Positions 3,883-62,376 of a DNA stretch of 64,000 nucleotides are shown here, piece by piece. Where the stretch lies: contig JAUWGS010000002.1 in the NCBI GenBank assembly GCA_030606285.1, forward strand, positions 125,612 to 189,611. The letters run 5' to 3'. The stretch comes from Planctomycetales bacterium. GTDB taxonomy: Bacteria; 4484-113. Under the pieces are notes generated by a model that ran no database searches, had not been told where the DNA came from, and worked only from the letters and a program-made list of their open reading frames with translations. The position numbers and the translations under genes were made by a program. Positions within the stretch are counted from its first letter, which is position 1, and every line of letters starts with the position of its first letter.

Positions 3883-3956
3883 GGGGACGTAGTGTAGAGG
3901 CCTAACATACTTGCCTGTCACGCAAGAGATCGCGAGTTCGAATCTCGTCGTCCCCG
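3883..3956 (+). tRNA. tRNA-Asp (anticodon GTC); CCA not encoded
   Basis: Cloverleaf read by eye: acceptor ggggacg/cgtcccc, anticodon loop ctGTCac, T-arm gcgagttcgaatctcgt, discriminator G. Confidence 0.85.
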
Positions 3957-4190
3957 TTTCGTGGCCTTACCTGTCACATATCAACCGGCTCTCCGCGCTG
4001 GTGCGTTCCCCGTCTGGCTTGAAAGGTGTAGGTTTTCAGCCCAATCCCGGTTCATGACGGGCGATGGTAGAATAACCTCGGATTGGTGAATTTCTGGAAC
4101 ACAAGCTGTGCGGCTTCCCGCGCGAACGCAATGCGAAACCGATATGATTCCCGCGCTTCCCTGCGCGACTTCACGAGGAGCTAGTCGCTT

Positions 4191-5045
4191 ATGACCGAAA
4201 TGAGCGTGACGATCCTGCGCGTGGCGCTGTTCGTGTATCTCGCCTCCACAGCCGCGTATCTGGCCCACGCGACCTTTGCCCGGCGCAATGCAGTGGGAGT
4301 TGTGGCGTACGCAGCCCTGGCCGTTGCATTTGCCCTGCACACAGTCTTTCAGGTTATCCGCGTCGTTGAGTACTGGTCGCAGCACCAGGCGTTCATTCTC
4401 CCAACAGCCTCATTCATTGAGGCGGTAAGCTACTGCGCGTGGATGGTTGCGCTGGTTTACCTCGTGGCGGAACGGTTCATCAAGACACGGCTCTTTGGTG
4501 CGGCAATTGGAGCTGCGATAGTCCTGCTTCTCGGTTATGCGATGCTTCATGGTTCAGAGATGGTTCCCCGTCCGCTGATTCCAGCGCTCAAGAGTCCCTG
4601 GCTCAACATACATGTCACGGCGGTAATCCTCTCCTACGCGGGATTCCTGTTCAGCGCCATCGCAGCCGTCTTCTACCTGCTGCGATTGCGCGGAATACGC
4701 TGGGTGGAGAACCTGTTTGCAAACCTGACGCTGGAGGATCACGACATGCTCACCTACAGGTTCGTCGTTTTCGCCTTTCCCATTCTTACTGTGGGGATCA
4801 TCACGGGAGCCATCTGGGCCGACCAGGCCTGGGGGCGTTTCTGGGGCTGGGATCCCAAGGAAACCTGGAGTCTCATTACGTGGCTCATCTGGGCGGGTTA
4901 CCTTCACACCCGATTGGCGTTTGGCTGGCGGGGCGCCCGAAGCGCCTGGTTCGCGATACTCGGAATCATCTCCGTCTTCATCACGTTTTTCGGTGTAAGT
5001 TTCCTCGCCGCCTATTTCAGTGTGGAATCGCTGCACACCTATTAA
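4191..5045 (+). CDS. ccsA: cytochrome c-type biogenesis protein CcsA/ResC (system II heme handling)
   Basis: Polytopic membrane protein with Trp-rich WGRFWGWDPKETWSLITWLIWAGYLH (WWD-type) motif. Confidence 0.75.
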   Translation: MTEMSVTILRVALFVYLASTAAYLAHATFARRNAVGVVAYAALAVAFALHTVFQVIRVVEYWSQHQAFILPTASFIEAVSYCAWMVALVYLVAERFIKTRLFGAAIGAAIVLLLGYAMLHGSEMVPRPLIPALKSPWLNIHVTAVILSYAGFLFSAIAAVFYLLRLRGIRWVENLFANLTLEDHDMLTYRFVVFAFPILTVGIITGAIWADQAWGRFWGWDPKETWSLITWLIWAGYLHTRLAFGWRGARSAWFAILGIISVFITFFGVSFLAAYFSVESLHTY

Positions 5046-5059
5046 ATTGGATTGAGTGA

Positions 5060-6628: not shown

Positions 6629-6658
6629 GACCGATTCGGCACACTTGCCATCGTCCGT

Positions 6659-8023
6659 TTGAGCTGTGCGCATCGACCAAAGCCAGCTAGAACCAGCAAC
6701 GATTCTGCGCAGCATTCAGCTCTCGAGTCTGCCACTAAACTCGCTGCTGTTTCGAGCCGCCGTTGCGCTCATCTCCTGCAAAGCCTACAATACGTGTCTA
6801 TGCTCACAGGAATGAGCTGGCAGGAGGCCCAGAGTCGGTTGCTGGCGTGGGCCCGTCCGCTGGGCACAGACACAGTGCGTCTGCGCCACGCTTTGTCTCA
6901 TTATTCGGCGGTGGATGTGCTCGCACAGTCTCCGTATCCCGCGCACAACCTGGCCGAAGAACGGGGTTACGCACTGAGTTATGATGCGCTGAAGGCACGC
7001 TGGGACAAGGATGAGCTTCCGCTCTTCAGGTTCGGTGGCAATCTTGGTGGGCGGCACACGTTCAAGCGGCAGGTCTCAAGCGACCAGGCAATGCTGGTCG
7101 ATATTGGCGCTTTTCTTCCAGATGCATACGACCTGGTCGTTCCCGAAGACGAAGTCGAGCGGAGAGACAACGAGGTTGTGGTGAAGGCGCGCTCGGAGAG
7201 ATACAGCGGTGTTATCCGCCGGGGACAGTTCATCCCCGAGCAGAAAGCGCTGTTGTCCAAAGGTCGCCGCATCTCATACGCTGGCTACACGGCGCTCTAC
7301 AGCCAGCCGGTGGAAGAGGTCGACGTGTTGCGCAAGCCGATCATCGGCTCGCTCGTTCTCGGTTCCGGCCTGCACGACCCTCACGCGGTAAAGGTGCCCA
7401 AGGACTCGATTCCCGAGCTTCTCTCCCCCATGATGATGGGCATATGCGCACGCTGGCAGTTCCCATTCATCTCCTTGGGGGTTCAGGAGTCACACAGAAG
7501 TGTCGGCGAGGCAGTGAGCCGGGCATCGGAGCAGGCGGAAATCCTGGTTGTCTCGGGCATCCTTTCCTCGTCTCAATGGCAGGCCTTCACGCGCATGCTC
7601 GGCGAGACGTGGGAGCTGCGGGTTGAAGGTCTCAACCACCCGCTGTGCGGCAGGCTCTGTATGGCTGCGCGGGAAGGGAGGTGGCTCTTCTTCCTACCCT
7701 ATCATCCGCCCATGATACAGGCTCTTCTCACGCTGCTCATATTCCCGTTCGTTACGCGTGTGATGGGAGACGAACACGGATATGTTCCCTTCGTGTCCGC
7801 AAGGTCGCTGGAGACCGTTGAAGTGAAAGATCGGCGGGACGATATCTGGGTTGGACGCGAGGAGTCCACAGGCGAGTTTATGAATGTCGCGCAGGTTAAG
7901 CTAATCTGCCAGATATCCAGTGCGACGCTTACCTCCCTGGCTGAAGGCACCTGCTTCGCTATTCCCCGAGTATCGAGCGATCGCATTGAGGCGCACAGTG
8001 ACCTGGCGATAGTCCGGTACTAG
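6659..8023 (+). CDS. hypothetical protein with MoeA/gephyrin-like layout (divergent; catalytic residues not recognisable)
   Basis: Colinear resemblance to the MoeA N-terminal region (AEERGYALSYDAL vs SAMDGYAV-type segment; PVEEVDVLRKPIIGSLVLGSGL vs MoeA PVIRKVRVALFSTGDEL). True start probably at M48 (nt 6800). Confidence 0.3.
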   Translation: MSCAHRPKPARTSNDSAQHSALESATKLAAVSSRRCAHLLQSLQYVSMLTGMSWQEAQSRLLAWARPLGTDTVRLRHALSHYSAVDVLAQSPYPAHNLAEERGYALSYDALKARWDKDELPLFRFGGNLGGRHTFKRQVSSDQAMLVDIGAFLPDAYDLVVPEDEVERRDNEVVVKARSERYSGVIRRGQFIPEQKALLSKGRRISYAGYTALYSQPVEEVDVLRKPIIGSLVLGSGLHDPHAVKVPKDSIPELLSPMMMGICARWQFPFISLGVQESHRSVGEAVSRASEQAEILVVSGILSSSQWQAFTRMLGETWELRVEGLNHPLCGRLCMAAREGRWLFFLPYHPPMIQALLTLLIFPFVTRVMGDEHGYVPFVSARSLETVEVKDRRDDIWVGREESTGEFMNVAQVKLICQISSATLTSLAEGTCFAIPRVSSDRIEAHSDLAIVRY

Positions 8024-8084
8024 CGCAATCGAACGCTCCTGGCTGGCTTTTCGTCTCCCTTTCGGGTTCGCAACGGCGAATCCG

Positions 8085-10793
8085 GTGCTACAATTGAAGC
8101 TTCCGGCGATGATAGGAGGTTTGGGTAAAGCACGCCGCCCCGGCGGTGCGTGCGGGTCATCACACGCGCTTCGATGCCGAGCAGGGGCGAACTACTGGCG
8201 CGCGCCGGCGGTTGCGCTCACCTGCTTGCTGCTGGTGATTCTTTTTCCTGCATGGGCAATAGCGGGAGACTCCATTGACGTCGTGCATCCCGATAGCGAT
8301 TCAGCGCCACGGAAAGCCGACACTGTGGTGGGTAAGGAGGCGGAACTTGCACCTGATGAATCCACCCCGGCACCTTCTGAGCCGACACAGGTGGCTGAGA
8401 ATGGTGTGGACGAAATCGAAGACGAGTCTGCCGGAGACAGCGTGTCTGTTTCCACGAAGACAGTCGTTCCAATGTCCAAGAGCCTAACCATCCCACTTAC
8501 AGAGGGTGCGATGTACCTTGAAGCGTACGACCGGCTGGAGTTTGACCGCAGCGCGGGAACGGCGATCCTGGAGGGAGACGCTCTCATTGTGATTGACGAT
8601 TTAGAGATAGAGGCTGACTACATCGAGCTGAACGACCGGGCCAAGAATGTCTACCTCCGGGGCAGTATCGCCCTACAGCAGAAAGACGATGTCATGTTTG
8701 CCGACGAAGGCTACTACAGCTACGACACGAACGAATTCTCTTTCATCAATGTCTCCGGCAACACAGGCGGCACCGAGATAGGCGGAACCGTCTACTTCAA
8801 GGCTGATGAGGCGAAGGGTAGAATGGACGATTTTGACATGTGGAACGTGTGGGCTACTTCCTGTCCGCCCCACTGTAAGATATACGAATACGAGCTCCGC
8901 GCACGGAAGGCCAGAGTGCATCGGGACAGCAGTCTGATGCTGCACCACGTCTACATCTACGTAAGGGAGCGCAAGATAATGTTCGTGCCCGAACTCGCGT
9001 TTCCCCTTAAGAGATACAAGCCCTTGCGGCAAACGGAATCGCCCATCCAGCAGGATTTCGGGATGTCGCCGTATGAAGGATACTACTCGAAGTTCGCCTA
9101 TACGTACATGAATGAGTACTCGGAGGTTATAGGCGCGATTCTGCTGGGTGTCGCTTTGCTCGAGCTCACACAGAAACAGGGGCCCGGTACCGGCCTACGC
9201 CACGATTTCGCAACCCCGCTCGGCTTAACGACAGTGCGCGGTTTCTATCAGCGGCAGGTTGAGGGCGAGAAGGACGAGAAAACAGGCGTTGTCTATGAGC
9301 CGCAAATCAACTACGAGTACGAGCTGTTGCAGGAGCTCAAGCTCACCGATAACATTACCGGGGATCTCTCCACTAACCGGGTGAATCTCCCCACATCCTT
9401 CCGTGGCCGTAAGAACACAATGAGCAGCAAGCTGAATCTGACTTACAAGCGGCCGAAGGGAAACATCAGTCTTTCAGGAAGCCAGAATCTGAACATCAGG
9501 ACCACTTTGCCGACAGTCGAAGGTGGAGAAGTTACGCGGACGCAGACAAACTCCACAAAAGCCAACTTCTCGTTCACCCATAAGATAAACCGTAGGACAA
9601 ACCTCAATATCACGCAGACACTTGACGGTAACAAGACAACCGCAGGGGTGCCGATGGATCTGTGGGGCAACTTCAATGGCAGGTTGACCTACACGCGTCC
9701 CGACCACAGCATAGCGCTTGAGTACCAGGAGACGGGGATGGACTTCGATGGAGACCGCAATACGGAGGATGTAAACCGGTCGTACAGGAAACTGCAACCC
9801 GGGTTGACGTGGAACATCAGGCGGTCGGCTTTCGGGAAAAACACCCCATTCACCGGTGTGACGATGAATCTTGAGAGGAGATACGAACGCCGCGGCAGCG
9901 AAGATGATCCGCGCTCTACGACTCGATTCAAGGTAAACACAGGGCTGGGCAGGACTTTCAAGGGCAAGAGTACGACGCTCACGACATCCCTCGACTTCGC
10001 GCAATACATGTATGGTGACGGCAACGCCCAGTACTCGTTGAAGCCTTCGTTCAGGTTCGATTATGACAACCGGGATTGGTTCTCCTTTGGAACCCGGTGG
10101 TCGCGTACGGTGCAAAACGGGGTGAAGAACCCGCCGGTGCTGGGTGACAGAACCCGCTCGTCGCACACCACGAGCTTCAATATGGGTTTCTACAATGAGC
10201 GATGGTGGAAGCTCACCTTCCGTAGCGGCTACAATTTCCACCGGAAGGAATGGACCAAACTATCCTCCACGTGGAAGCTGTATCCCTCGCCGGATCTGGA
10301 CCTGACCTTTACTTCGGGCTACAACATAGAGAGAAAAACCTTTTCCAATCTCACCACAGAGGCCAGCTATAGTGCGCCTTCAGGAAACTGGTGGCTCAAC
10401 TGGCGAATGACCACGAAACTCCAGGGGTACGGTATTACGAGCCGGCCAGTGCCGTTCGAGAGTTATCGTTTCACATACTCGCGCAGGTATAAGCGCGGCT
10501 GGAGTTTCCATGCCACCGGCACCAAGAGCAGTCGGATTTTCGACCGCGTGCAGATCCAGAAGCGCAGCACCTGCACGACGATGAATATGGGTTACTCGTC
10601 ATATCGCGATGAATACTACGTGAGCTTTTTCATCAATGCCTTCCCGAGGTATCCAGTGGAAGTGCAGGCGAAGGAGGGAACCACAGGCGGCTGGGAATTC
10701 GACATGTCCACTCCCGCCAGTGGTTGGTTCGACATCCCGGGCCTGGCGAGCGGCTTGGGAGGCGCGTCAGGGGGCTATGCCGGGTATTACTAG
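8085..10793 (+). CDS. LPS-assembly outer-membrane protein LptD/OstA-like (N-terminal OstA beta-jellyroll plus large C-terminal beta-barrel)
   Basis: Signal/TM AVALTCLLLVILFPAWAIAG. OstA-like region KNVYLRGSIALQQKDDVMF. About 600 aa of amphipathic aromatic-rich beta-strand-like sequence, ending in aromatic residues (GYAGYY). Confidence 0.55.
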   Translation: MLQLKLPAMIGGLGKARRPGGACGSSHALRCRAGANYWRAPAVALTCLLLVILFPAWAIAGDSIDVVHPDSDSAPRKADTVVGKEAELAPDESTPAPSEPTQVAENGVDEIEDESAGDSVSVSTKTVVPMSKSLTIPLTEGAMYLEAYDRLEFDRSAGTAILEGDALIVIDDLEIEADYIELNDRAKNVYLRGSIALQQKDDVMFADEGYYSYDTNEFSFINVSGNTGGTEIGGTVYFKADEAKGRMDDFDMWNVWATSCPPHCKIYEYELRARKARVHRDSSLMLHHVYIYVRERKIMFVPELAFPLKRYKPLRQTESPIQQDFGMSPYEGYYSKFAYTYMNEYSEVIGAILLGVALLELTQKQGPGTGLRHDFATPLGLTTVRGFYQRQVEGEKDEKTGVVYEPQINYEYELLQELKLTDNITGDLSTNRVNLPTSFRGRKNTMSSKLNLTYKRPKGNISLSGSQNLNIRTTLPTVEGGEVTRTQTNSTKANFSFTHKINRRTNLNITQTLDGNKTTAGVPMDLWGNFNGRLTYTRPDHSIALEYQETGMDFDGDRNTEDVNRSYRKLQPGLTWNIRRSAFGKNTPFTGVTMNLERRYERRGSEDDPRSTTRFKVNTGLGRTFKGKSTTLTTSLDFAQYMYGDGNAQYSLKPSFRFDYDNRDWFSFGTRWSRTVQNGVKNPPVLGDRTRSSHTTSFNMGFYNERWWKLTFRSGYNFHRKEWTKLSSTWKLYPSPDLDLTFTSGYNIERKTFSNLTTEASYSAPSGNWWLNWRMTTKLQGYGITSRPVPFESYRFTYSRRYKRGWSFHATGTKSSRIFDRVQIQKRSTCTTMNMGYSSYRDEYYVSFFINAFPRYPVEVQAKEGTTGGWEFDMSTPASGWFDIPGLASGLGGASGGYAGYY

Positions 10794-49955: not shown

Positions 49956-50213
49956 ATGGCAGGCCATATGATGTACTACACTTACGTCCTTGAGAGTGAA
50001 GCAAAGCCCGGGGTGCGTTATATCGGACATACATCCGATCTCAAGCAACGCATTTCTAATCACAACAGCGGAAAAAGTGCTCACACCGCGAAACTGCGTC
50101 CCTGGAAACTCAAGCTCTATATTGCATTTGAAGATCTCGAACATGCCCGGCGTTTCGAGCGCTACTTGAAGAGTGGCTCCGGCCACGCGTTCGCCACTCG
50201 CCACTTCTGGTAG
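49956..50213 (+). CDS. small GIY-YIG nuclease-superfamily protein (YhbQ-like), copy 2 (true start possibly MMYYTYVL, a few codons in)
   Basis: YYTYVLESEAKPGVRYIGHTSDLKQRISNHNSG. About 50% identical to copy 1. Stop abuts the right direct repeat. Confidence 0.7.
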   Translation: MAGHMMYYTYVLESEAKPGVRYIGHTSDLKQRISNHNSGKSAHTAKLRPWKLKLYIAFEDLEHARRFERYLKSGSGHAFATRHFW

Positions 50214-51510: not shown

Positions 51511-52422
51511 TTAGGGTGCGGATTCCCCAGCAGCTTCCGATGCAGCGGGCGGTTCCTTGAATAGCTCCGCCACGCCGGCAATCGAGCCAAGAATCCCGCT
51601 TACCTCCGCCGGCAGGATTATCTTGGTCGCCTTGCCGTCGGCGAGCTTCTCCATCATCTCAAGATAGCGAATGGCGATGAGGTCGTTGGTAGGTCTGCCT
51701 TCGTGGATGGAGTTAAAAACAGTGATGATTGCTTCAGATTTGCCTTCCGCCTCCAGTATCTGCGCCTGCTTAAATCCCTCGGCTTTCAAGATGCGAGCCT
51801 GCTTGTCACCCTCCGCCTCGCGGATCGCCGCCATCTTCACACCTTCAGCATCCAGGATGACCGCGCGCTTTTCACGCTCCGCCTTCATCTGCTTCTGCAT
51901 CGCTTCGGTGATTTCGGGCGGCGGGATGATGTTCTTCAGCTCCACGCGGTTCACCTTCACGCCCCACTTGTCGGTCGCCGTGTCCAGAATCTCGCGAAGC
52001 ATCGTGTTGATCCGGTCACGGCTCACGAGCGTCTGATCAAGCTCCAGATCGCCCACAACGTTACGCAGCGTGGTCACGGTCAGTTTCTCAATACCCATAA
52101 CCGTACTGGCAATCTCATAGACGGCGCGAAAGCTGTCCATAACCTGGTAGTACATCACCGCGTCAATCTTGATGCCAACGTTATCCTTGGTGATGACCTG
52201 CTGCGGCGGATGGTCGAGCACCTGTTCGCGCATGTCAACGCGAGCACGCACCCTATCCACGAAGGGGATGATGACACTCAGACCTGGATGGAGAGTGCGG
52301 CTGTACCGCCCCAAGCGTTCGATTATCCACTCGTGTGCCTGGGGAACCACCTTCACCGAATTGGAGAAGACGATCAGAACAAATACAATGAGGACAAATA
52401 TGCCAAGGCCTGTTGCTTCCAT
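51511..52422 (-). CDS. SPFH/band-7 (stomatin-like) membrane protein
   Basis: N-terminal TM then SPFH domain (VITKDNVGIKIDAVMYYQV) and C-terminal coiled-coil-like EA-rich region (EAEGDKQARILKAEG). Partner of NfeD. Confidence 0.8.
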   Translation of the reverse strand: MEATGLGIFVLIVFVLIVFSNSVKVVPQAHEWIIERLGRYSRTLHPGLSVIIPFVDRVRARVDMREQVLDHPPQQVITKDNVGIKIDAVMYYQVMDSFRAVYEIASTVMGIEKLTVTTLRNVVGDLELDQTLVSRDRINTMLREILDTATDKWGVKVNRVELKNIIPPPEITEAMQKQMKAEREKRAVILDAEGVKMAAIREAEGDKQARILKAEGFKQAQILEAEGKSEAIITVFNSIHEGRPTNDLIAIRYLEMMEKLADGKATKIILPAEVSGILGSIAGVAELFKEPPAASEAAGESAP

Positions 52423-52444
52423 TTCCTTCCTCCTGGAAAGGTAA

Positions 52445-53047
52445 TTATGATTGTGATTCGTCGGTGGGTTGCTCGCCGCGAGCTTGCTCTGGCGGTAGCG
52501 CCTCTACGACCACCTTATTTCCGGATATCCTGAGAACCTTCGCCCGTGTGCCTTTCGGCAGGTGCTCGGGCCCCGCTCCAATACAGCTCCAAGGCTCGCC
52601 CTGAATCACGATTGTTCCCTTACTGACGTCACCGCCTACTTCACGCGTAATCGTCCCCACCGCACCCACGAGTGCTGCCACATTGCTGGCACGGCTTTCC
52701 TTGGCCAAGAGAAACATGCGGCGGCTGATGGGACGAATGAAGATGAGCAGAAATGCAGAGGTGACAACGAAAACGGCAAGCAGGATGAGAACCTGATTGG
52801 TGAAGAAGGCAAACGCCATCGTGATGAGGGCAGCAATACCGAAGAAAAAGAGGTAGAAGGTCGGTGCGGTCATCTCCAGCAGCAACAGCACCACTCCGAC
52901 TACGAGCCAGAACACCCATCCGCCGAAGAATGGACTTAAGGCGTTACCCTCCCCAGCGAGTGACGCATCCGCCCGCGCCGCAAGCGCAAAGGGCAGCAAA
53001 AGACTGAGTGCAAATATGAAGTGCCTTCTCATGTGTATTCCCCGCAT
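52445..53047 (-). CDS. NfeD-family membrane protein (stomatin operon partner, short form)
   Basis: Signal peptide plus TM region then C-terminal OB-fold-like GTIVIQGEPWSCIGAGPEHLPKGTRAKVLRISGNKVVV. Immediately upstream of the stomatin gene on the same strand. Confidence 0.7.
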   Translation of the reverse strand: MRGIHMRRHFIFALSLLLPFALAARADASLAGEGNALSPFFGGWVFWLVVGVVLLLLEMTAPTFYLFFFGIAALITMAFAFFTNQVLILLAVFVVTSAFLLIFIRPISRRMFLLAKESRASNVAALVGAVGTITREVGGDVSKGTIVIQGEPWSCIGAGPEHLPKGTRAKVLRISGNKVVVEALPPEQARGEQPTDESQS

Positions 53048-53278: not shown

Positions 53279-54421
53279 ATGAATTTACACCTGAAACTGC
53301 CACGGATGCCGAAGCTCAGGATCGGCAAACTGGTGGCCAAGATTCCGATCATACAAGGAGGTATGGGCGTCGGAATCTCGCTTTCAGGCCTTGCATCGGC
53401 CGTGGCAAGGGAGGGTGGCATAGGAGTGATCGCAACCGCCGGGATCGGTATGCTGGAACGGGACTTCCAGAGTAATCTCAAGGCGGCCAACGAGCGGGCT
53501 CTGCGCCGCGAGATCAGACAGGCGCGAAAAAAAACCGATGGCATCATCGGTGTGAATATTATGCTGGCCCTGTCGGATTACGGTGAACTCTGTCGGGCGG
53601 CAATCGAGGAGGGTATCGACCTGGTCATCCTCAGTGCGGGACTTCCGCTGAAGGTCCCTGATAACATGCCACCGGACTGGCCTCGGGGCTGCAGCAGCAT
53701 GATCGTGCCCAAGGTGTCCTCCGGCCGGGCTGCCCGTCTGATATTCCAATACTGGGCAAGACACTACGACCGCGTGCCTGACGCTGTTGTTCTCGAAGGG
53801 CCGATGGCTGGCGGTCATCAAGGATTCCGCAAGGAAGACCTGGACAATCCAGACTTCGGGGTGGAAAAGCTGGTACCCGATGTCATCGCTGCAGTGCGCC
53901 CCTTCGAGCAGCGTTACGGGCAGCAAATCCCGGTGATTGTTGGCGGTGGCATCTTCACGGGCGCGGATATTCACCGCTTCTTGCAGATGGGCGTCCAGGG
54001 CGTGATGATGGGCACGAGATTCGTGGCCACATACGAGTGTGACGCCCACGAGCACTTCAAGGAAGCGTACTTGAACTGCCGGAAGGAGGATATGGTCGTA
54101 ATCGACAGCCCGGTTGGGCTGCCGGGCCGGGCTATTCTCAATAAATACTTGAAGGACGTGGCCGAGGGGATCCGCAAGCCATACAAGTGTTTCTGGAAGT
54201 GTCTTCGCACCTGCGATGTCCGGAACGCGCCCTACTGCATCGCCCAGGCTCTGACTAACGCCAAGAAGGGCCTGCTCGAGGAGGGCTTCGCATTCGCGGG
54301 CTACAACGCATACCGCGTGAACAAGATCGTTTCGGTGAAGAATCTCATCGAATCGCTGGTCTGGGAATACCAGCGCGCAGTGGCGGCGGCGACTGCGACA
54401 CTGCGACCCGTACACGCCTGA
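53279..54421 (+). CDS. nitronate monooxygenase / FabK-like FMN-dependent oxidoreductase (NMO family)
   Basis: PIIQGGMGVGIS motif, TIM-barrel NMO signature; 380 aa. Confidence 0.65.
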   Translation: MNLHLKLPRMPKLRIGKLVAKIPIIQGGMGVGISLSGLASAVAREGGIGVIATAGIGMLERDFQSNLKAANERALRREIRQARKKTDGIIGVNIMLALSDYGELCRAAIEEGIDLVILSAGLPLKVPDNMPPDWPRGCSSMIVPKVSSGRAARLIFQYWARHYDRVPDAVVLEGPMAGGHQGFRKEDLDNPDFGVEKLVPDVIAAVRPFEQRYGQQIPVIVGGGIFTGADIHRFLQMGVQGVMMGTRFVATYECDAHEHFKEAYLNCRKEDMVVIDSPVGLPGRAILNKYLKDVAEGIRKPYKCFWKCLRTCDVRNAPYCIAQALTNAKKGLLEEGFAFAGYNAYRVNKIVSVKNLIESLVWEYQRAVAAATATLRPVHA

Positions 54422-54765: not shown

Positions 54766-55053
54766 GTGAACATTTACGTAGGTAACCTGTCTTTTGACTG
54801 TTTGGATGATGACCTCAAGACTGCCTTTAGCGCTCACGGCCAGGTGGAATCTGCAAGAGTCATCTCCGACAAGTACACCGGCAAGTCACGGGGCTTTGGC
54901 TTCGTGGAGATGGCCAACGACACCGAGGCGCAGGCTGCGATTGCAGCTTTGAACGGCACCGAGCTGAAGGGACGCGAGATCAAAGTCAACGAGGCGCGGC
55001 CAAAGACCCAGAGCCGTCCCAGAGGCGGCGGCGACCGCGATCGCGGCTGGTAG
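54766..55053 (+). CDS. RNA-binding protein with single RRM domain and Gly/Arg-rich tail (GTG start)
   Basis: RNP-2 IYVGNL and RNP-1 RGFGFVEM. About 330-nt untranslated leader upstream. Confidence 0.8.
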   Translation: MNIYVGNLSFDCLDDDLKTAFSAHGQVESARVISDKYTGKSRGFGFVEMANDTEAQAAIAALNGTELKGREIKVNEARPKTQSRPRGGGDRDRGW

Positions 55054-55187: not shown

Positions 55188-55658
55188 CTAAGGCTCCTCG
55201 CCGCTCACCTTGTTGATATCAAGTATGCCCTCGGAGGCTTCCCGCTCTTCCTTCGCTTTCTTGCACGCCGGGCACAGGCCAAGGAGCTCCAGCCGATGCC
55301 CGATAACCTCATAGTCGCAGAGATCGCGGAACGCCTGCTCCAGGTATGTAAACGGCTGCACGGGCAGATTCTCCACCCGGCCGCAGCGTGCGCATCTGAC
55401 GTGGTAATGGTCCTTCGTGTCGGCGTCGAAGTGCTTCTTCGAGCAGCCGACTTCGAGCACCTGGATCTTTCCCCATTCGCATAGGGCTTCGAGGTCCCGG
55501 TAGATGGTGCTCATGCTGATGCGCGGCAGGCGCTTCCTGACCGCCTCGTAGACCTCGTCGGCCGTGGGATGGCAGTCAAGTTTCCTTATTTCCTCGAGGA
55601 TAACCCGCCGCTGCCGGGTCATCCTGAGTTCCTGATTTGACGAATTGCGATTACCCAA
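55188..55658 (-). CDS. Fur-family transcriptional regulator (Fur/PerR/Zur-type), copy 2
   Basis: MTRQRRVILEEI DNA-binding helix. Two CxxC pairs (RCARCG, CPACK). Start 30 nt after the nuoF-like stop; alternative start MTRQRR. Confidence 0.7.
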   Translation of the reverse strand: MGNRNSSNQELRMTRQRRVILEEIRKLDCHPTADEVYEAVRKRLPRISMSTIYRDLEALCEWGKIQVLEVGCSKKHFDADTKDHYHVRCARCGRVENLPVQPFTYLEQAFRDLCDYEVIGHRLELLGLCPACKKAKEEREASEGILDINKVSGEEP

Positions 55659-55688
55659 GTACAGACATTTTACCTCATCTTTCTGTAC

Positions 55689-57581
55689 TTAGGCAGCCCC
55701 CGCGGGCGCCACTGCGGGTGACCTTTTTTCGACGGCATTCTCTTTACATATCTGCACGCAGGCGCCACACTTGTCGCAGAGAGTCTGGTCGATCTCACGC
55801 AGCAGCCCTTCCTTGCGCTTCTGTCTTCGAACAGAATGGATAGCTAAGGACGCACAGGCTTCTTCGCATTCGCCGCAGCCGTTGCAGAGGTCAGGAACGA
55901 TGTGATAGGAAATGAGCGATTGGCATACTCCCCCGGGGCACTTGTGCTCAACGATGTGAGCAGTGTATTCATCCCGGAAATACTTGATGCTGGACAGCAC
56001 GGGGTTGGGAGCTGATTTCCCGAGTCCACAGAGCGCAGTTGCGGCAACCGTCTCGGCAAGTTCCTCAAGGTCGTTGATATCCTTGAGCTTACCTTGCCCG
56101 TCGCAGATCCGGTGCAGAATCTTGGACATCTGCCTGAGCCCCTCGCGGCAAGGGAGGCACTTCCCGCAGCTTTCGTCGATGAGGAAATCGATGAAGTACT
56201 TGGCCACGTCTACCACACAGGTGTGTTCATCCATCACGATCATCCCGCCCGAGCCCATCATTGAGCCGGCATCAGTCAGCGCATCAAAGTCAACGGGAAG
56301 ATTAAGCTTGCTCTCCGGCAGCATCCCTCCGGACGGTCCTCCGGTCTGAACCGCTTTGAACTTCCCATCCTTCTTTATGCCGCCGCCGATATCATAAACG
56401 ATTTCCCGCAGCGAAGTGCCCATTGGCACCTCTATCAGCCCGGTGTTGTTGACTTTGCCCACGAGCGAGAAGACCTTGGTGCCCGGGCTTCCTTCCGTTC
56501 CGATGCCGCGGAACCACTTGGCGCCCTTGTTGATGATGTGCGGGACGTTCGCCCAGGTCTCGACATTGTTGAGGGTCGTCGGTTCGTCGTGGAAGCCCTT
56601 TTCAGTGGCGTGGGTGAACTTGTCGCGCGGCTCGCCAACCTGTCCGTCAAGCGAGCGCATGAGGGCCGATGACTCCCCGCAGACAAAGGAACCTGCACCG
56701 AACGTCATGTCGATATCGAAGCTGAAGTCGGTGCCGAGGATATTGTCACCCAGCAGGCCAAGTTCCCTGGCCTTGTCCAGCGCTGCGCTGAAGGTCTTGA
56801 CAGCCTGAGGATATTCGTGGCGTATGTAGATGTAGCCGTTGGTTCCTCCAATTGCGTACGCGCCGATGAGCATTCCCTCAATCACCGAATGCGGGTTGCC
56901 CTCCAGGACCGCTTGGTCCATGAATGCGCCGGGATCACCCTCGTCGGCGTTGCAGATGATGTGCCGGCGGTCGCCGGGAGCTTCCTTGCAGCTCTTCCAC
57001 TTCCAGCCTGCCGGGTATCCGGCGCCTCCGCGCCCCCGCAGGTTCGCCTCAATCATCTCCTCGATAATGTGTCCAGGCTCCATCACCTGCAGGGCTTTCG
57101 CGAGCGCGGAATATCCACCGTGCGCCAGATAGTCATCGATGCGGAGAGGGTCGACATAGCCATTCAGCGCCAGTACGATACGGTGCTGTTTCGAGTAAAA
57201 CTCGATCTCGTGCTCCCGTCCCAGTTTTTCGCCGGTACCGGGATGCGTGTATAGCAGGCGGTCAACCACCTCATCTTCCTCCTTGGTAGACCGCATGATA
57301 TCTGTTACATCGCCGGGCTTTACCATATGGTAGAAGATGTTTGCCGGACGGACAACGCTGAGCGGACCGTATTCACAGAAGCCCTGGCACCCGCTTTTGA
57401 TGAACCTGATATCGCTGCTCCCTGTGGTCAGCTTCTCGAAAACGTTCGCGACTTCCTCTGAGCCTGCGGCCCGGCACGACGCTCCCTGGCAGACGGAAAT
57501 GACGAGCGGGTACTCCTCGAACTCACGGCGGCACTTGTCCTGAAACAGCTTGAACTGCTCGATGCTCCTAAGCTTCTCCAT
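55689..57581 (-). CDS. NuoF-like flavoprotein (NADH dehydrogenase 51-kDa-type; HydB/HndC-like with N-terminal [2Fe-2S] thioredoxin-like domain and C-terminal 2x[4Fe-4S] domain), copy 2
   Basis: RGRGGAGYPAGWKW FMN/NADH motifs, NADEGDPGAFMD, ESCGKCLPCREG 4Fe-4S motif, C-terminal CxxCxxCxxxC pairs. Confidence 0.8.
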   Translation of the reverse strand: MEKLRSIEQFKLFQDKCRREFEEYPLVISVCQGASCRAAGSEEVANVFEKLTTGSSDIRFIKSGCQGFCEYGPLSVVRPANIFYHMVKPGDVTDIMRSTKEEDEVVDRLLYTHPGTGEKLGREHEIEFYSKQHRIVLALNGYVDPLRIDDYLAHGGYSALAKALQVMEPGHIIEEMIEANLRGRGGAGYPAGWKWKSCKEAPGDRRHIICNADEGDPGAFMDQAVLEGNPHSVIEGMLIGAYAIGGTNGYIYIRHEYPQAVKTFSAALDKARELGLLGDNILGTDFSFDIDMTFGAGSFVCGESSALMRSLDGQVGEPRDKFTHATEKGFHDEPTTLNNVETWANVPHIINKGAKWFRGIGTEGSPGTKVFSLVGKVNNTGLIEVPMGTSLREIVYDIGGGIKKDGKFKAVQTGGPSGGMLPESKLNLPVDFDALTDAGSMMGSGGMIVMDEHTCVVDVAKYFIDFLIDESCGKCLPCREGLRQMSKILHRICDGQGKLKDINDLEELAETVAATALCGLGKSAPNPVLSSIKYFRDEYTAHIVEHKCPGGVCQSLISYHIVPDLCNGCGECEEACASLAIHSVRRQKRKEGLLREIDQTLCDKCGACVQICKENAVEKRSPAVAPAGAA

Positions 57582-58098
57582 TGTTTTCCTCCTTGTTGGC
57601 CCGTTTCCTGAGCCTTTTCACAAGCGCATCGACCCGATCGTGCGTTACATTCGCGTGGTATTCGCCGTCGACCACAAGGACCGGGCCCATAGAGCACGCG
57701 CCTATGCAGTTGACAGACTCCAGCGTGAACAATCCATCATCAGACGTCCCGTTCCAGGGGATCCCGTGCCGCTTATCCAGCGTTTTTGCTAGCAGTGCCG
57801 AACCTAGTATGTAGCAGCCAGTGCCCGTGCAAAGCTGCAGGATGTGCTTGCCCCGCTGCACGAGGCTGAACACTTTGTAGAAGGTTGCAATGTGGTAGAT
57901 CTGACCTTTGGGAACGCCAAGGCGTATCGAGATGTACTCCAGAGCCTCCTGAGGAAGCCAGTTGTACTTCTCCTGGACGGCGAGCATGGCCATGATAGTT
58001 TTCGACGGATTGCCCGCCCACTTCCCTATGAGATCTTCGACTTCTCGTTCGATTTCGCTTGCCGGTTCCGTCATCTCTGGATGTCCGGTTGCTTCCAT
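57568..58098 (-). CDS. NuoE-like [2Fe-2S] thioredoxin-like subunit (24-kDa-type), copy 2
   Basis: LAVQEKYNWLPQEALEYIS...CTGTGCYILG...CIGACSMGPV. Confidence 0.8.
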   Translation of the reverse strand: MEATGHPEMTEPASEIEREVEDLIGKWAGNPSKTIMAMLAVQEKYNWLPQEALEYISIRLGVPKGQIYHIATFYKVFSLVQRGKHILQLCTGTGCYILGSALLAKTLDKRHGIPWNGTSDDGLFTLESVNCIGACSMGPVLVVDGEYHANVTHDRVDALVKRLRKRANKEENNGEA

Positions 58099-58323
58099 AG
58101 TTCATTCCTCCTCGTTTCGTTCTCATGCCAATCGGATGCTCAGTCGACCCTCATAGCACCTCCCCCTTATTGCGCAATCAGCGCAGTCTTGCGAATACGC
58201 AGCTCGTAATAACTCCTATTTCCCTTCAGCTTCTTAACCGGACATCTGTAGCGTGAGCGCATCTCCGCAAAACCCTTACACAATAATAACACCTATTCTA
58301 GCAATGTCAAGCTCATTCTATCA

Positions 58324-58342
58324 GGAATAGGGTATTCCCTTA
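58324..58342 (+). promoter_or_regulatory. operator-like inverted repeat GGAATA-ggg-TATTCC(CTTA) upstream of cassette-2 nuoE-like gene
   Basis: Matches the motif AATAGG-N(1-3)-TATTCCC found twice upstream of cassette 1. Confidence 0.4.
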
Positions 58343-58458
58343 CATAGTAACCTGATATGGTAAGCGGGATGTCCAGGCGAAAGCCTGCGTAGCTGGGGAA
58401 TGGCCTTTTGCGCGTACGGGCGAAGGTCAGTTTCTTGTAGAGATGGGGATTACACGCC

Positions 58459-58920
58459 TTAGCCTTTCTTATCTGCCGCAACCGGTTCAGTGGCGGCTTG
58501 TCTTTGCTCTTCTTTCTTCTGCTTCAAGCATTCCGGGCACAGCCCAATGAGCTCCAATCGGTGCCCGATTACTTCGTAGTCGCATAGATCGCGGAATGCC
58601 TGTTCCAGGTACGTGAACGGCTGCACGGGCAGATTCGTCACTCGGCCGCAGCGTACGCATCTGGCGTGGTAGTGATTATTGGTATCGGCGTCGAAGTGCT
58701 TCTTAGAGCAGCCGACCTCAAGCACCTGGATCTTGCCCCATTCGCACAGCGTTTCGAGGTCTCGGTAGATGGTGCTCATGCTGATGCGTGGTAGCCGCTT
58801 CCTGACGGCCTCGTAGACCTCGTCGGCTGTCGGATGGCCGTCGAATTTTCTTGTCTCCTCAAGGATGACCCGGCGTTGCCGGGTCATCCTGAGTTCCTGA
58901 TTTGACGAATTGCGATTCAC
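58459..58920 (-). CDS. Fur-family transcriptional regulator, copy 1
   Basis: About 90% identical to copy 2 in the first 110 aa. Same 30-nt spacing after the nuoF-like stop. Confidence 0.7.
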   Translation of the reverse strand: MNRNSSNQELRMTRQRRVILEETRKFDGHPTADEVYEAVRKRLPRISMSTIYRDLETLCEWGKIQVLEVGCSKKHFDADTNNHYHARCVRCGRVTNLPVQPFTYLEQAFRDLCDYEVIGHRLELIGLCPECLKQKKEEQRQAATEPVAADKKG

Positions 58921-58948
58921 CTGTTAGAGACCATCTGCCCTGTCTCCG

Positions 58949-60847
58949 TCAGCTCCTGGCCGCGCCTACCGGAACTTCTGCCGGAGAGCGCTTCTCGATG
59001 GCATCCTCCGGACAGATCTCGATGCAGGCGCCACACTTAACGCAAGCTTCAAGGTCGATTTCGTGAAGCAAGCCATCCTTGCGCTTCTTCCCGCGTACCG
59101 TGTGGATAGCGTCGACCGGACAGATTTTAGCGCAGGCTCCGCAACCGGTGCAGGATTCCGGCAGGATGTGGTAGGAGATCAGCGCCTTGCAGACGCCGCC
59201 GGGGCACCTGTGCTCAACGATGTGCGCAAGGTACTCCTCGCGGAAATGCCTGATACTCGAAAGTACCGGGTTCGGTGCTGACTTCCCGAGTCCGCAAAGC
59301 GCGGTTGCTGCAACCGTCTCGCCGAGCGCCTCCAGGTCGTTTACGTCCTTGAGCTTGCCGTCCCCGTCGCAGATCCGGTGGAGCATCTCGGACATCTGCC
59401 GGAGTCCTTCACGGCAGGGCAAACACTTGCCGCAGCTCTCATCGATCAGGAAGTCGATGAAGTACTTGGCTACGTCAACAACGCATGTGTCCTCGTCCAT
59501 TACTATCATGCCTCCCGAGCCCATCATTGAGCCCGCTTCAGTCAGCTCGTCGAAGTCCACAGGGAGGTCCAGCTGGGCTTCCGAGAGCATCCCGCCGGAC
59601 GGCCCGCCGGTCTGCACTGCTTTGAATTCCTTGTCTTCTTTGATGCCGCCGCCAATGTCGAAGACGATTTCCCGAAGCGATATTCCCATCGGGACCTCGA
59701 TGAGGCCGGTGTTTTCCACCTTGCCGACGAGCGAGAAGACCTTCGTGCCGGGGCTGTCCTTGGTGCCGATACCCCGGAACCACTGCGCGCCCTTGTTGAC
59801 GATGTGCGGTACGTTCGCCCAGGTCTCGACGTTGTTGAGGTTTGTGGGCTCGTCATGGTACCCCTGCTCGGTGGCGTGGATGAACTTGTCGCGCGGCTCG
59901 CCGACCTGTCCCTGGAGAGAACGCACAAGCGCGGATGATTCGCCGCATACAAACGCGCCGGCGCCGAAGCACACCTGGATGTCGAAGTCGAAGCCGGTGC
60001 CGAGGATGTTCTCGCCCAGCAGGCCGTAGTCTCTCGCCTGGTCCAGGGCGTTCTGGAACGTATGCACGGCGTACGGATACTCGTGGCGAATGTAGATGTG
60101 GCCGTCGGTTCCGCCGATGGCGTACGCGCCGATGATCATGCCTTCGATGACCGAGTGCGGGTTGCCTTCCAGGACCGCCTGGTCCATGAACGCGCCCGGG
60201 TCGCCCTCGTCGGCGTTGCAGATGATGTGGCGGCGCTCGCCGGGCGCTTCGCTACAGGTCTTCCACTTCCATCCTGCGGAGAAGCCGGCGCCGCCACGCC
60301 CGCGCAGGTTCGCCTGGATCATCTCCTCGATGACCTCCCCGCGCTCCATCCCGGTCATTGCCTTGGCGAGCGCGGAGTACCCATCGTAGGCGAAGTAGTC
60401 CTCGATCCTGAACGGATCGATGTACCCGTTGAGCTCCAGCACTACCCGGTGCTGCTTCGCGTAGAAGTCGATTTCGTGCTCTTTACCGAGCTTCTCCCCA
60501 GTTGTCGGATGCGCGTAGAGCAACCGGTCAACGACCTCGCCGCGTTCGACCGTCTTCTGCATAACCTCGCTGGCGTCACCGGGCTTGAGCATCTGGTAGA
60601 AGATATTCGACGGTCGGACAACGCTTAGTGGGCCCTTCTCGCAGAAGCCCTGGCATCCGCTTCTGATGAATCGGATGTCACTGCTTCCCCCGACGATTTT
60701 CTCAAATGCGTTGGCGACTTCCACGGCGCCGGTCGCCCGGCACGACATCCCATGGCAGATGGAAATGACCATGGGGTAGGCCTCAAGCTCCTTGCGGAAC
60801 TTTTCCTGAATGACTTTGAGCATTTCAGCTGATTCGATTCTAGGCAT
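58949..60847 (-). CDS. NuoF-like flavoprotein (HydB/HndC-like), copy 1
   Basis: About 80% identical to copy 2. Same domain order. Confidence 0.8.
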   Translation of the reverse strand: MPRIESAEMLKVIQEKFRKELEAYPMVISICHGMSCRATGAVEVANAFEKIVGGSSDIRFIRSGCQGFCEKGPLSVVRPSNIFYQMLKPGDASEVMQKTVERGEVVDRLLYAHPTTGEKLGKEHEIDFYAKQHRVVLELNGYIDPFRIEDYFAYDGYSALAKAMTGMERGEVIEEMIQANLRGRGGAGFSAGWKWKTCSEAPGERRHIICNADEGDPGAFMDQAVLEGNPHSVIEGMIIGAYAIGGTDGHIYIRHEYPYAVHTFQNALDQARDYGLLGENILGTGFDFDIQVCFGAGAFVCGESSALVRSLQGQVGEPRDKFIHATEQGYHDEPTNLNNVETWANVPHIVNKGAQWFRGIGTKDSPGTKVFSLVGKVENTGLIEVPMGISLREIVFDIGGGIKEDKEFKAVQTGGPSGGMLSEAQLDLPVDFDELTEAGSMMGSGGMIVMDEDTCVVDVAKYFIDFLIDESCGKCLPCREGLRQMSEMLHRICDGDGKLKDVNDLEALGETVAATALCGLGKSAPNPVLSSIRHFREEYLAHIVEHRCPGGVCKALISYHILPESCTGCGACAKICPVDAIHTVRGKKRKDGLLHEIDLEACVKCGACIEICPEDAIEKRSPAEVPVGAARS

Positions 60848-61370
60848 CTTTTGCCTCCTTCTCAGCCAGCCGCTTCAGTCTCTTGACGACTGCGCCTGCG
60901 CGATTCTGCGTCATGTTTCCCCGGTGCTTGCCGTCCACAACCAGAACCGGGCCGATTGTGCAGGCTCCCACGCAGTTCACGCGTTCCAGTGTGAACAGCC
61001 CATCCTCGGACGTACCTCCCAGCGGAATCCCGTAGTCCCTTTCCAGGGCGTCCGCCACCATGGGTGCGCCTCGAACGTGGCACGCTGTTCCCATGCAGAG
61101 CTTGAGGATGTGCTTGCCCCGCGGGACCAGGCTGAACACCTTGTAGAACGTCGCGATGTGATAGATCTGGCCCTTGGGGACCTCGAAGCGCCGGGAGATA
61201 TAGTCCAGGGCGTCCGGCGGCAGCCAGTTGTACTTGTCCTGAACCGCCAGCATAGCCATGATCAGCTTTTCCTGGTCTCCCCCCCAGTCTTTGACCAGCT
61301 CCTCGACCTCCTTGTCGGTCTGCGAAGTTGGCTCGATTACACTAAGTTCCCTTATTGCCTCCATGGTCAC
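60840..61370 (-). CDS. NuoE-like [2Fe-2S] subunit, copy 1
   Basis: LAVQDKYNWLPPDALDYIS...CMGTACHVRG...CVGACTIGPV. Confidence 0.8.
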   Translation of the reverse strand: MTMEAIRELSVIEPTSQTDKEVEELVKDWGGDQEKLIMAMLAVQDKYNWLPPDALDYISRRFEVPKGQIYHIATFYKVFSLVPRGKHILKLCMGTACHVRGAPMVADALERDYGIPLGGTSEDGLFTLERVNCVGACTIGPVLVVDGKHRGNMTQNRAGAVVKRLKRLAEKEAKDA

Positions 61371-61407: not shown

Positions 61408-61499
61408 AATAGGAACTATTCCCATTATATCGTCCGAAATGGGGTCTGTCAACCCCCTGTAAGGAAATTTAACCTATGCAAATAGGAATTATTCCCATT
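61408..61499 (+). promoter_or_regulatory. two copies of AATAGGAAnTATTCCCATT (61408-61426, 61481-61499), 73 bp apart, in the promoter region of cassette 1; palindrome GGGGTctgtcaACCCC between them
   Basis: AT-rich motif island in a GC-rich intergenic region. Related motif upstream of cassette 2. Candidate binding site for the co-transcribed Fur-family regulator. Confidence 0.45.
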
Positions 61500-61779
61500 T
61501 TGCAGTTATCAGAAGGGACATCTGTGCTCTCAGGTCTAAACCCGCAAATGCAGGCTCAGCACGCTGGATTGAGTCTAGCGTTGCTGAAGTGTCTGAATCT
61601 AGAGACCAGTTGCCACTCACTCTCAGTTGTGATGCCCAAAAGAGCCTTCGCGGGCTGATGATCACTGCGCTGACCTTCTGAGTTGAGTCGATGGCGCTGC
61701 CGCTTGAGTATCAAGCTCGCACACTGCACAGCTAGGTTCTGTGCTAGTATCTTCGGAACGCTTTCAGCGGGGGTTGTAT

Positions 61780-62376
61780 ATGGCCTATTTGCTTACCGCA
61801 GCGATTGTCGTCGTTGTAGCTCTAATTGCATTATGGCTCATCGTAGCCTACAACCGCTTCATTCGCGGCACGAACCTTGTGCGCGAAGCGTGGAGCGGCA
61901 TAGACGTGCAGCTCAAGCGCCGTCACGACCTAATCCCCAACATTGTCGAAGCCGTCAAGGGATACAGCAGCCACGAACGCGAGGTGTTCGAAGAAGTGGC
62001 GGCGCTGCGGGCGAAAGGTGCGGACGACGACGTGCTCAAGCGCAGTGAAACGGAAAACGCACTCACTCGTTCGATTAAGACTCTCTTCGCGGTCGCCGAG
62101 GATTATCCCGAGCTCAGAGCCAACGAGAACTTCCTCTCGCTGCACGAGGCGCTGGTCGAGGTCGAGGACGATATCCAGTACGCTCGCCGGTACTACAACG
62201 GTACGGTGCGCGACTTCAACATCCGGGTGGAGGCTTTCCCCAGCAACTTAGTTGCCGCTGCGTTCAGCTTCAGGCGCAAAGTGTACTTCGAGATTGAGCT
62301 GGCGAGCGAGCGTGAAGCGCCGGAAATGGACCTGTCGGATACGCGCGAAGAATCTTCGGAGGGGCACGATGCATAA
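61780..62376 (+). CDS. LemA-family membrane protein
   Basis: N-terminal TM (LLTAAIVVVVALIALWLIVAY) then NRFIRGTNLVREAWSGIDVQLKRRHDLIPN...YYNGTVRDFN. Confidence 0.75.
   Translation: MAYLLTAAIVVVVALIALWLIVAYNRFIRGTNLVREAWSGIDVQLKRRHDLIPNIVEAVKGYSSHEREVFEEVAALRAKGADDDVLKRSETENALTRSIKTLFAVAEDYPELRANENFLSLHEALVEVEDDIQYARRYYNGTVRDFNIRVEAFPSNLVAAAFSFRRKVYFEIELASEREAPEMDLSDTREESSEGHDA

Follow-up and report, generated by a model that had tools for sequence, protein, structure and literature searches.

Two tandem cassettes with a BfuA-less BfuBC core

The analysed stretch of DNA, in the following called the window, comprises 64,000 nucleotides (nt) of contig JAUWGS010000002.1 (positions 125,612 to 189,611 of the forward strand) in assembly GCA_030606285.1 of a Planctomycetales bacterium. 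On its minus strand it carries two tandem copies of a three-gene cassette, each coding in the same order for a NuoE-like [2Fe-2S] protein (E), a NuoF-like flavoprotein (F) and a Fur-family regulator (R). Cassette 1 (61370-58459) consists of E1 (60840..61370, 176 amino acids (aa)), F1 (58949..60847, 632 aa) and R1 (58459..58920, 153 aa from a GTG start codon), cassette 2 (58098-55188) of E2 (57568..58098, 176 aa), F2 (55689..57581, 630 aa) and R2 (55188..55658, 156 aa from a TTG start codon). An earlier note on this DNA had described the six open reading frames and their arrangement in two minus-strand cassettes, and all six were recovered with identical coordinates. E and F overlap by 8 nt in cassette 1 and by 14 nt in cassette 2. 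The gaps between F and R are 28 and 30 nt, only the latter being the distance reported earlier, and R1 and E2 are 360 nt apart. Global alignments revealed an identity of 59% for E1/E2, the most diverged pair, 77% for F1/F2, close to but below the initial estimate of about 80%, and 79% for R1/R2. For the first 110 aa of the regulators, the alignment agrees with the earlier value of about 90%; their C-terminal tails are diverged. An exact-sequence lookup of F1 gave no match.

Both E proteins matched the Pfam family 2Fe-2S_thioredx (PF01257) with E-values around 1e-41 (6.6e-42 for E1, with CxxxxC and CxxxC motifs, and 1.9e-41 for E2). The F proteins matched Complex1_51K, NADH_4Fe-4S and two Fer4 domains, together with a weak N-terminal match to 2Fe-2S_thioredx. 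The domain order of F1 is an N-terminal [2Fe-2S] domain, the FMN/NADH domain, a [4Fe-4S] site, a His/Cys site and a C-terminal 2x[4Fe-4S] domain. Among solved structures, the best match was the WOR-Bfu complex (9mqx_B, 1.8e-227), followed by HydB of T. kivui (8a6t_B) and NiFe-HydB of A. mobile (7t2r_B); F aligns end to end with all three, and the BfuB domain set, including SLBB, is complete. The Nqo1/NuoF structures of complex I were far behind with about 1e-99. All ligands of the clusters B1 to B5 are present in F1: C472, C475, C478 and C518 for B1, C455, C493, H542, C548 and C553 for B2 (corresponding to C438, C476, H525, C531 and C536 in A. mobile), and for the others four N-terminal cysteines and two CxxCxxCxxxC motifs. 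F2 likewise has all Cys/His cluster ligands. The HydB/HndC-type beta-subunit architecture proposed in the earlier note is borne out by these structural matches and ligands. In NCBIfam, the NuoF model TIGR01959 reached only 454-458 bits where its cut-off is 558.65, and the models for NuoE likewise fell short of theirs. Nqo1 lacks the additional cluster domains that F has at both ends, and no nuo genes adjoin the cassettes.

E, a [2Fe-2S] protein with Cys motifs whose gene overlaps that of F, corresponds to BfuC. No gene for BfuA (Fer2_4/NuoG-like) was found in the operon, whose bounds are genes on the opposite strand. Judged by their sequences, E and F make up a BfuBC core of the Bfu/HydABC family that lacks BfuA and has FMN and six predicted iron-sulfur centres. 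Since Types 1-3 of this family need BfuA, the gene content would fit only Type 4. Type 4, the BfuBC-only loci, is a predicted class of 47 members, 13 of which have a rubrerythrin gene directly downstream, and this 'Rub-Bfu' is predicted to reduce H2O2 with NADH and ferredoxin (Schut et al. 2022, Front Microbiol, PMC9304861). The same study covers 1558 BfuB sequences in 57 clades, with Type 4 as clade 57.

The two operons are enclosed by a divergent LemA gene beside cassette 1 (61741-62376, plus strand) and a convergent gene for an RRM RNA-binding protein beside cassette 2 (54766-55053, plus strand). Because both are on the opposite strand, no hydrogenase or formate dehydrogenase (FDH) gene can share either operon, and the objection that such a subunit might belong to the same operon, raised in the earlier note itself, is removed. 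In agreement with that note, no catalytic [FeFe]- or [NiFe]-hydrogenase or molybdopterin FDH subunit was present in the operons or flanks of the window cassettes. The same was observed for hydrogenase and FDH catalytic subunits in the syntenic contigs L002-L004, L008 and L177 (L numbers denote homologous loci or contigs from other genomes and metagenomes).

PerR-type regulators and candidate operators

R1 and R2 belong to the Fur family (FUR, PF01475, 2e-24 and 1.2e-25). Their best match in the PDB was PerR of Bacillus subtilis (2fe3, 6e-25), with Fur and Zur structures at 1e-13 or weaker, and the top NCBIfam models were PerR models (101-106 bits, below the curated cut-off of 180). The Cys4 zinc site, formed by two CxxC pairs, is invariant, and the equivalents of H37, D85, H91 and H93 (B. 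subtilis PerR numbering) are retained, i.e. four of the five ligands of the regulatory site. From these features, the regulators are classified as PerR-type, not Fur or Zur; the earlier note had left the choice between Fur, PerR and Zur, and its family assignment stands in this sharpened form.

The genomic setting of related regulators was sampled in 80 genome and 80 metagenome loci. Linkage to E and F was confined to a narrow group with regulators at least about 60% identical to R1, and the 153 loci with relatives of 42-60% identity lack it. Neighbours of the regulator in these 153 loci were genes for rubrerythrin (24 loci, mostly as the next gene), flavodiiron protein (16), Tpx (8), superoxide reductase (SOR, 5) and ferritin (4), and ArsP/HMA permeases also recur. 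This neighbourhood is the classical PerR setting of anaerobes.

Annotations in metagenome-assembled genomes (MAGs) start R 11-12 codons later, at MTRQRR (58887 in R1, 55622 in R2), and the MAG protein for R1 was retrieved only with this shorter annotated start. The 33-36 nt before MTRQRR are in frame and free of stop codons, encode a conserved xNRxxxNQELR, vary among loci largely at synonymous positions and have counterparts in the interior of B. subtilis PerR. For these reasons, and in view of the alignment to PerR residues 18-20, MTRQRR was dropped as the true start, and the upstream GTG (R1) and TTG (R2) codons are probably correct.

Upstream of cassette 1, a promoter with the full sigma-70 consensus was identified (TTGACA-17-TATAAT, 61424..61452, minus strand; 12 of 12 positions). 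It is conserved in L004, L008 and L094 and accompanied by two candidate PerR-type boxes on the same strand. The distal box AATGGGAATAATTCCTATT (61481..61499), with one mismatch to AATRGGAATNGTTCCYATT, precedes the -35 element by about 30 nt; the proximal box AATGGGAATAGTTCCTATT (61408..61426) has no mismatch to this 19-mer and contains the perfect palindrome GAATAG-N3-CTATTC. The proximal box begins within the -10 element and spans the expected transcription start. Both boxes are conserved in L004, L008 and L094, the distal one at the same position. They are the two copies of AATGGGAATA(A/G)TTCCTATT at cassette 1; two sites were found in the window against 0.04 expected. The box also matches the predicted PerR box of Desulfovibrio, AATAGGAATCGTTCCTGTT, with the consensus AwnAGnAAtngTTnCTnwT (Rodionov et al. 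2004, Table 7, PMC545781), this consensus being that of Desulfovibrio and itself a prediction. A description of the operator solely as a 6-3-6 palindrome, GAATAG-N3-CTATTC, was abandoned, as by the table of Rodionov and coworkers the site fits a 19-bp 9-1-9 box as well.

The promoter of cassette 2 (TTGACA-16-TATTAT, 58283..58310, minus strand; 11 of 12 positions) has an extended -10 element with TG and is conserved in L004 and L092. Box 2a, GAATAGGTGTTATTA (58284..58298, minus strand), has two mismatches and overlaps its -10 element, and box 2b, AAATAGGAGTTATTA (58207..58221, minus strand), lies in the leader about 55-70 nt downstream of the expected start. At the orthologous sites of both boxes L002, L003 and L004 possess the perfect core AATAGNNNCTATT. 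A further palindrome, GGGAATACCCTATTCC (58324..58339, minus strand), is located just upstream of the -35 element; the spacing of its half-sites is unlike that of the other boxes, and its assignment as a box is uncertain because it is only partly conserved in L004 and L092. In the wider family, the core AATAGNNNCTATT with at most one mismatch precedes the start codon of 21 regulator genes by 48-82 nt. These were 21 of 51 hits in 1.76 Mb, with about 0.15 expected in that interval. Self-regulation, as the earlier note had proposed, is supported by candidate palindromic boxes that overlap both near-consensus cassette promoters and by the core motif in front of the 21 related regulator genes.

The leader of cassette 2 (58098-58282) is about 185 nt long; conserved in L003, L004 and L092, it may form a long hairpin with a few compensatory changes. 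The hairpin is no evidence of a structured RNA, since the folding z-score of 0.41 was no better than that of shuffled sequences and the alignment represents only two effective lineages. A scan of 54-64 kb against Rfam (E up to 1) had no match; hence, there is no known riboswitch or leader.

A scan for consensus promoters revealed none in the gaps between F and R, and the minus strand of the scanned region proved free of terminator-like sites. The gap between F2 and R2 contains a -10-like element, GGTAAAAT (55667..55674, minus strand), 8 nt before the R2 start, and in seven loci (window, L004, L093, the second R of L005, L172, L175 and L177) GGTA(A/G)AAT precedes the start codon of R by 8-11 nt, with no obvious Shine-Dalgarno sequence beside it. 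This element may be an internal promoter for a leaderless or nearly leaderless R transcript, which, if real, would be compatible with autoregulation. Separate promoters of the Fur-like genes, together with unrelated regulons, had been named in the earlier note as an observation that would refute its reading; for such promoters, the consensus scan provided none, the conserved element keeps part of this concern alive. It also lends support, together with the HydB/HndC architecture, to an alternative in which E and F are the diaphorase of a distant NAD(P)-linked hydrogenase or FDH and the Fur-like gene is incidental and separately transcribed. The order E-F-R, however, was kept in every cassette found (window, L002-L008, L092-L095 and L172-L177) and survived two duplications, which argues against an incidental adjacency. 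With the candidate boxes of the regulator on the E-F promoter and no catalytic gene in any flank seen, we regard this alternative as highly improbable.

Age, selection and turnover of the duplicated cassette

The layout LemA, E-F-R, E-F-R, RRM is also present on the independent metagenome contigs L002-L004 and L092, so the double cassette with its flanks is not an assembly artefact. In L002, a run of N at about 4175-4290 extends across R1 and the promoter of cassette 2; L003 and L004 are intact there. Orthologous E and F proteins of the window and L004 are 86-93% identical, the paralogs 60-77%. As the orthologs are closer than the paralogs, the duplication is older than the split between the window and L004 lineages. 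Synonymous divergence between paralogs is saturated (dS 1.4-2.8). Between the window and L004, the dN/dS ratios of all six genes were in the range of 0.04-0.14 (E1 0.08, F1 0.05, E2 0.09, F2 0.04, R2 0.14). Both cassettes are old, functional and retained by purifying selection.

Forty-nine residues are fixed differently in F1 and F2, 19 of them within the first 100 residues and nine past residue 550. F2 (55689..57581, minus strand) has ferredoxin motifs without the usual proline, CNGCGECEEACA and CDKCGACVQICK. The clustering of the differences in the N- and C-terminal cluster domains and the missing prolines of F2 suggest that the paralogs differ in their contacts to partners or acceptors, not in the NADH/FMN core. 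For the two specialised versions assumed in the earlier note, the comparison thus adds purifying selection on both copies and a concentration of the fixed differences in the terminal cluster domains of F.

The arrangement was encountered only in a small uncultured lineage: the unclassified MAG AUK046, a MAG labelled Candidatus Riflebacteria RBG_13_59_9 (74% identity) and a few sediment and subsurface contigs. L002-L008 come from Auka/Pescadero or TANS/DOMB samples. The closest genome is MAG AUK046 (GCA_021163765.1; L008; F 95% identical). L008 and L094 contain one cassette only, between the same flanks, and its regulator is chimeric (7703-8119 in L008, 9536-9952 in L094): at the informative sites the 5' part resembles R1, and the part past about nt 312 resembles R2. 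Due to this chimera, the single cassette fits a deletion of E2-F2 through recombination between R1 and R2. The more distant lineage L005-L007 has a decayed second cassette (10729-12251 in L005), with E split in two, a remnant of F of only the C-terminal 161 aa and then an intact second R. This remnant is 89% identical to the intact F of its own genome and only 71-76% to F1 and F2 of the window, which suggests an independent duplication or a gene conversion. A cassette that is repeatedly duplicated, decays and is deleted by recombination makes a small, tidy example of paralog turnover.

Other genes near the cassettes are a small open reading frame with a GIY-YIG domain (49956-50213), an SPFH (band 7)/NfeD pair (51511-53047) and a gene of the nitronate monooxygenase family (53279-54421). 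A link of these genes to the cassettes is not evident.

Oxygen-stress context and proposed role

In sister lineages, cassette genes are physically joined to genes for the detoxification of reactive oxygen species (ROS). In L172/L173, an intact F (79% identical to F1) and R head an oxygen-stress gene cluster on the same strand, with genes for ArsP/HMA, two rubrerythrins, peroxiredoxin, SOR, hemerythrin/DUF438, ZIP, flavodiiron protein and a flavin reductase::rubredoxin fusion. In L005/L006 the cassette and the decayed cassette are followed by R, ArsP/HMA, rubrerythrin and SOR. The rubrerythrin gene of L172 and L005 is not directly downstream of BfuB but separated from it by two genes, R and ArsP/HMA. 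A search for boxes before the detoxification genes of L172 and L005 gave none besides that of the cassette promoter; since a separate box is also missing before ArsP, the arrangement would be compatible with read-through from the cassette promoter into the cluster. The intergenic regions between R and ArsP (L172 1029-1201, L005 12252-12431, two lineages) have a stretch of about 45 nt in common, GAGCACGATAA..GTTCGGCTGC..TAAGGATG.

The observed gene content, cofactor ligands, duplication, selection, promoter and box layout and family context are best accommodated by a regulated variant of the predicted Rub-Bfu/Type 4 class, a model to which we give about even chances. It describes a self-repressed, peroxide-inducible PerR-type operon whose BfuA-less BfuBC core would supply electrons from NADH, possibly also from ferredoxin, to ROS detoxification; the likelihood of this function is likewise seen as balanced. 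The repression, the peroxide signal, the electron acceptor and any confurcation are inferred as follows. Each cassette would be transcribed as one E-F-R unit from a strong sigma-70-type promoter, overlapped by palindromic operators of the PerR-type repressor that the last gene encodes. In reduced, unstressed cells the metal-loaded repressor would occupy the boxes and keep the expression low. Peroxide or oxygen stress would inactivate the repressor and derepress the operon, and newly made repressor would close the loop. R1 and R2 would each act on both cassettes; this cross-regulation is probable because the DNA-binding regions differ in a single residue (SMSTIYRDLE(T/A)LCEWG). The BfuBC core would oxidise NADH, possibly together with reduced ferredoxin, and deliver the electrons to ROS-detoxifying acceptors encoded elsewhere, for example rubrerythrin, or rubredoxin serving SOR and flavodiiron protein, and the two paralogs would differ in partner or acceptor specificity. 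The idea of the earlier note, an NAD(P)H:acceptor oxidoreductase that responds to redox state or metal and regulates itself, is supported in this more specific form, as a PerR-like regulator with a Type 4 Bfu core and electron supply under oxidative stress as the likely role.

Several observations weigh against this model. Rub-Bfu is itself only a prediction, and a tblastn search of the 64-kb window yielded no gene for rubrerythrin, rubredoxin, SOR, flavodiiron protein, Tpx, ferritin or ArsP; the association of PerR with detoxification genes comes from the sister and wider-family loci, not from the window. The boxes of cassette 2 are degenerate in the window itself, R may have the internal promoter described above, and the PerR scores of the regulators stay below the curated cut-off. 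The equivalent of D104, a residue that tunes the peroxide sensitivity of PerR, is Asn in 12 of 12 members of the cassette subfamily and Asp in most distant relatives, and the subfamily has two extra invariant cysteines. Owing to Asn104 and the extra cysteines, the signal may not be peroxide. The Hdr/[NiFe] operon that harbours the nearest E and F homologs is found, moreover, in a MAG that also has the cassette, and docking of E and F onto an Hdr/[NiFe]-hydrogenase complex is possible.

The features of the regulator lead to a reading in which R1 and R2 sense a metal (Fe, Mn, Zn) or the thiol redox state, not peroxide, and the cassette takes part in metal homeostasis, for example by adjusting the expression of an Fe-S-rich flavoprotein to the iron supply. 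Besides the invariant Asn, the extra cysteines and the low NCBIfam scores, the ZIP and ArsP/HMA-type permeases near R in the sister clusters and the ArsP/HMA genes beside distant homologs would agree with it. Metal transporters, however, are part of the PerR regulons of B. subtilis as well. The similarity to PerR far exceeds that to Fur or Zur, the box resembles predicted PerR boxes and not Fur or Zur boxes, and the neighbours in the wider family are mainly genes of peroxide and oxygen detoxification. The Fe-S ligands are complete in E as well as in F, which are thus not iron-sparing variants. We consider metal or thiol sensing quite unlikely.

The second point concerns the relatives of E and F. 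The closest homologs outside the cassettes (66-67% identity for F, up to 71% for E) are encoded in operons of the type HdrC-HdrB-(HdrA)-BfuC-BfuB-BfuA-like-MvhD-[NiFe] small and large subunit, one of which (L091) is in MAG AUK046 together with the cassette of L008. E1F1 and E2F2 could therefore be spare BfuBC modules for stress conditions, docking on BfuA-like, Hdr and [NiFe]-hydrogenase subunits whose genes lie at another place in the genome. Once the regulator is inactivated, they would stand in for the BfuBC already there or add to it, e.g. to exchange an oxidatively damaged Fe-S flavoprotein or to re-route the H2/heterodisulfide electron flow. The cassettes have neither BfuA nor an acceptor gene of their own, and for some BfuBC-only loci BfuA may be encoded elsewhere (Schut et al., PMC9304861). 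A simple interchange is made less likely by the sequence divergence of 33-39% from the Hdr-linked paralogs, which is concentrated in part at the two terminal domains, and by the junction of the sister-lineage cassettes with ROS-detoxification and not hydrogenase genes; such spare modules are in our view unlikely.

The operon of L088-L091 (L091 is JAGGTK010000008.1 of MAG AUK046) starts with thioredoxin, cysteine desulfurase and MerR genes, continues with HdrC, HdrB, HdrA-like, BfuC, BfuB, a BfuA-like gene or an HdrA/GltD-like fusion and MvhD, and ends with the genes for the small and the large [NiFe] subunit. It has the look of a Bfu-type [NiFe] hydrogenase coupled to Hdr. A 57% relative in L178 belongs to a POR-type Bfu cluster (3392-10339) with POR subunits, BfuC, BfuB and a small BfuA, and a rubrerythrin gene directly after this cluster presents another Bfu-rubrerythrin adjacency.

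A stronger form of the preferred model holds that the cassettes encode self-contained, PerR-controlled, BfuA-less confurcating enzymes that combine NADH and reduced ferredoxin for a detoxification of the rubrerythrin/rubredoxin type, with the paralogs serving different acceptors, for example one the peroxide branch and the other the O2/superoxide branch. We put this forward tentatively, as a doubtful possibility. In a more remote variant, the regulator with Asn104 and extra cysteines would respond to the redox state that its BfuBC partner establishes.

With Type 4 and Rub-Bfu the cassettes share BfuC and BfuB with the full cofactor set, no adjacent BfuA-like gene, an association with rubrerythrin and oxidative-stress genes (in the sister loci) and the proposed role, NADH (and ferredoxin) for peroxide detoxification. 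They differ from Rub-Bfu in that a PerR-type regulator and not rubrerythrin directly follows BfuB, the window being without rubrerythrin, and from the class as a whole in the tandem duplication and in having Hdr/[NiFe]-linked BfuB as the nearest relatives found. The domain order and B1-B5 ligands of F, including the His/Cys site B2, and the correspondence of E to HydC are common to HydABC, NiFe-HydABCSL and WOR-Bfu (8a6t, 7t2r, 7p5h, 9mqx). Unlike those complexes, the cassettes lack HydA/BfuA or a catalytic subunit and have a co-encoded regulator, and bifurcation is putative here. With PerR of B. subtilis and the predicted PerR regulons of Desulfovibrio (perR-rbr-rdl; Rodionov et al. 2004, PMC545781), R has in common the Fur-family fold, the Cys4 zinc site, the H37, D85, H91 and H93 equivalents, a putative autoregulatory palindromic box near the promoter, the similarity of that box to AATAGGAATCGTTCCTGTT and the rubrerythrin link of its wider family. 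Distinct are the Asn for D104, the two extra invariant cysteines and the two tandem paralogs; moreover, R is the last gene in the operon of a BfuBC flavoprotein, not of rubrerythrin, rubredoxin or AhpC. In the ROS defence of Clostridium and Pyrococcus, NADH:rubredoxin oxidoreductase (NROR) transfers electrons from NAD(P)H to rubredoxin, rubrerythrin, SOR and flavodiiron protein, and in clostridia it is controlled by PerR. By analogy, the cassette may have a similar physiological role, an NAD(P)H-driven input to ROS detoxification. NROR belongs to an unrelated family and is a single FAD protein, whereas the cassette product is a two-subunit FMN/Fe-S complex of the NuoEF lineage of complex I.

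BfuBC-only loci and their link to peroxide were predicted before, and PerR autoregulation and its boxes are established. A literature search on PerR with NuoF or rubrerythrin and on Rub-Bfu brought up no account of such an arrangement and, in the library searched, no follow-up on Rub-Bfu or later use of the term. New are the union of BfuBC and a PerR-type regulator in one operon, predicted boxes on a Bfu promoter, a tandem duplication maintained by selection and, in sister lineages, the physical connection to a full ROS-defence island. The locus is well suited for experiments on a prediction that is still open, without being a system of a new kind; its two E-F pairs, its two regulators and its defined candidate operators are compact constructs for this purpose. 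The Bfu core of the HydABC type is known to power electron-bifurcating hydrogenases, formate dehydrogenases and enzymes akin to them. The locus raises the question whether anaerobes power ROS detoxification by a complex-I-like NADH module, possibly in confurcation with ferredoxin. It adds independent, regulation-based evidence for the predicted oxidative-stress role of Bfu cores without BfuA; if the confurcating function were true, regulation and genome context would here for the first time mark a Bfu core as a dedicated oxidative-stress enzyme.

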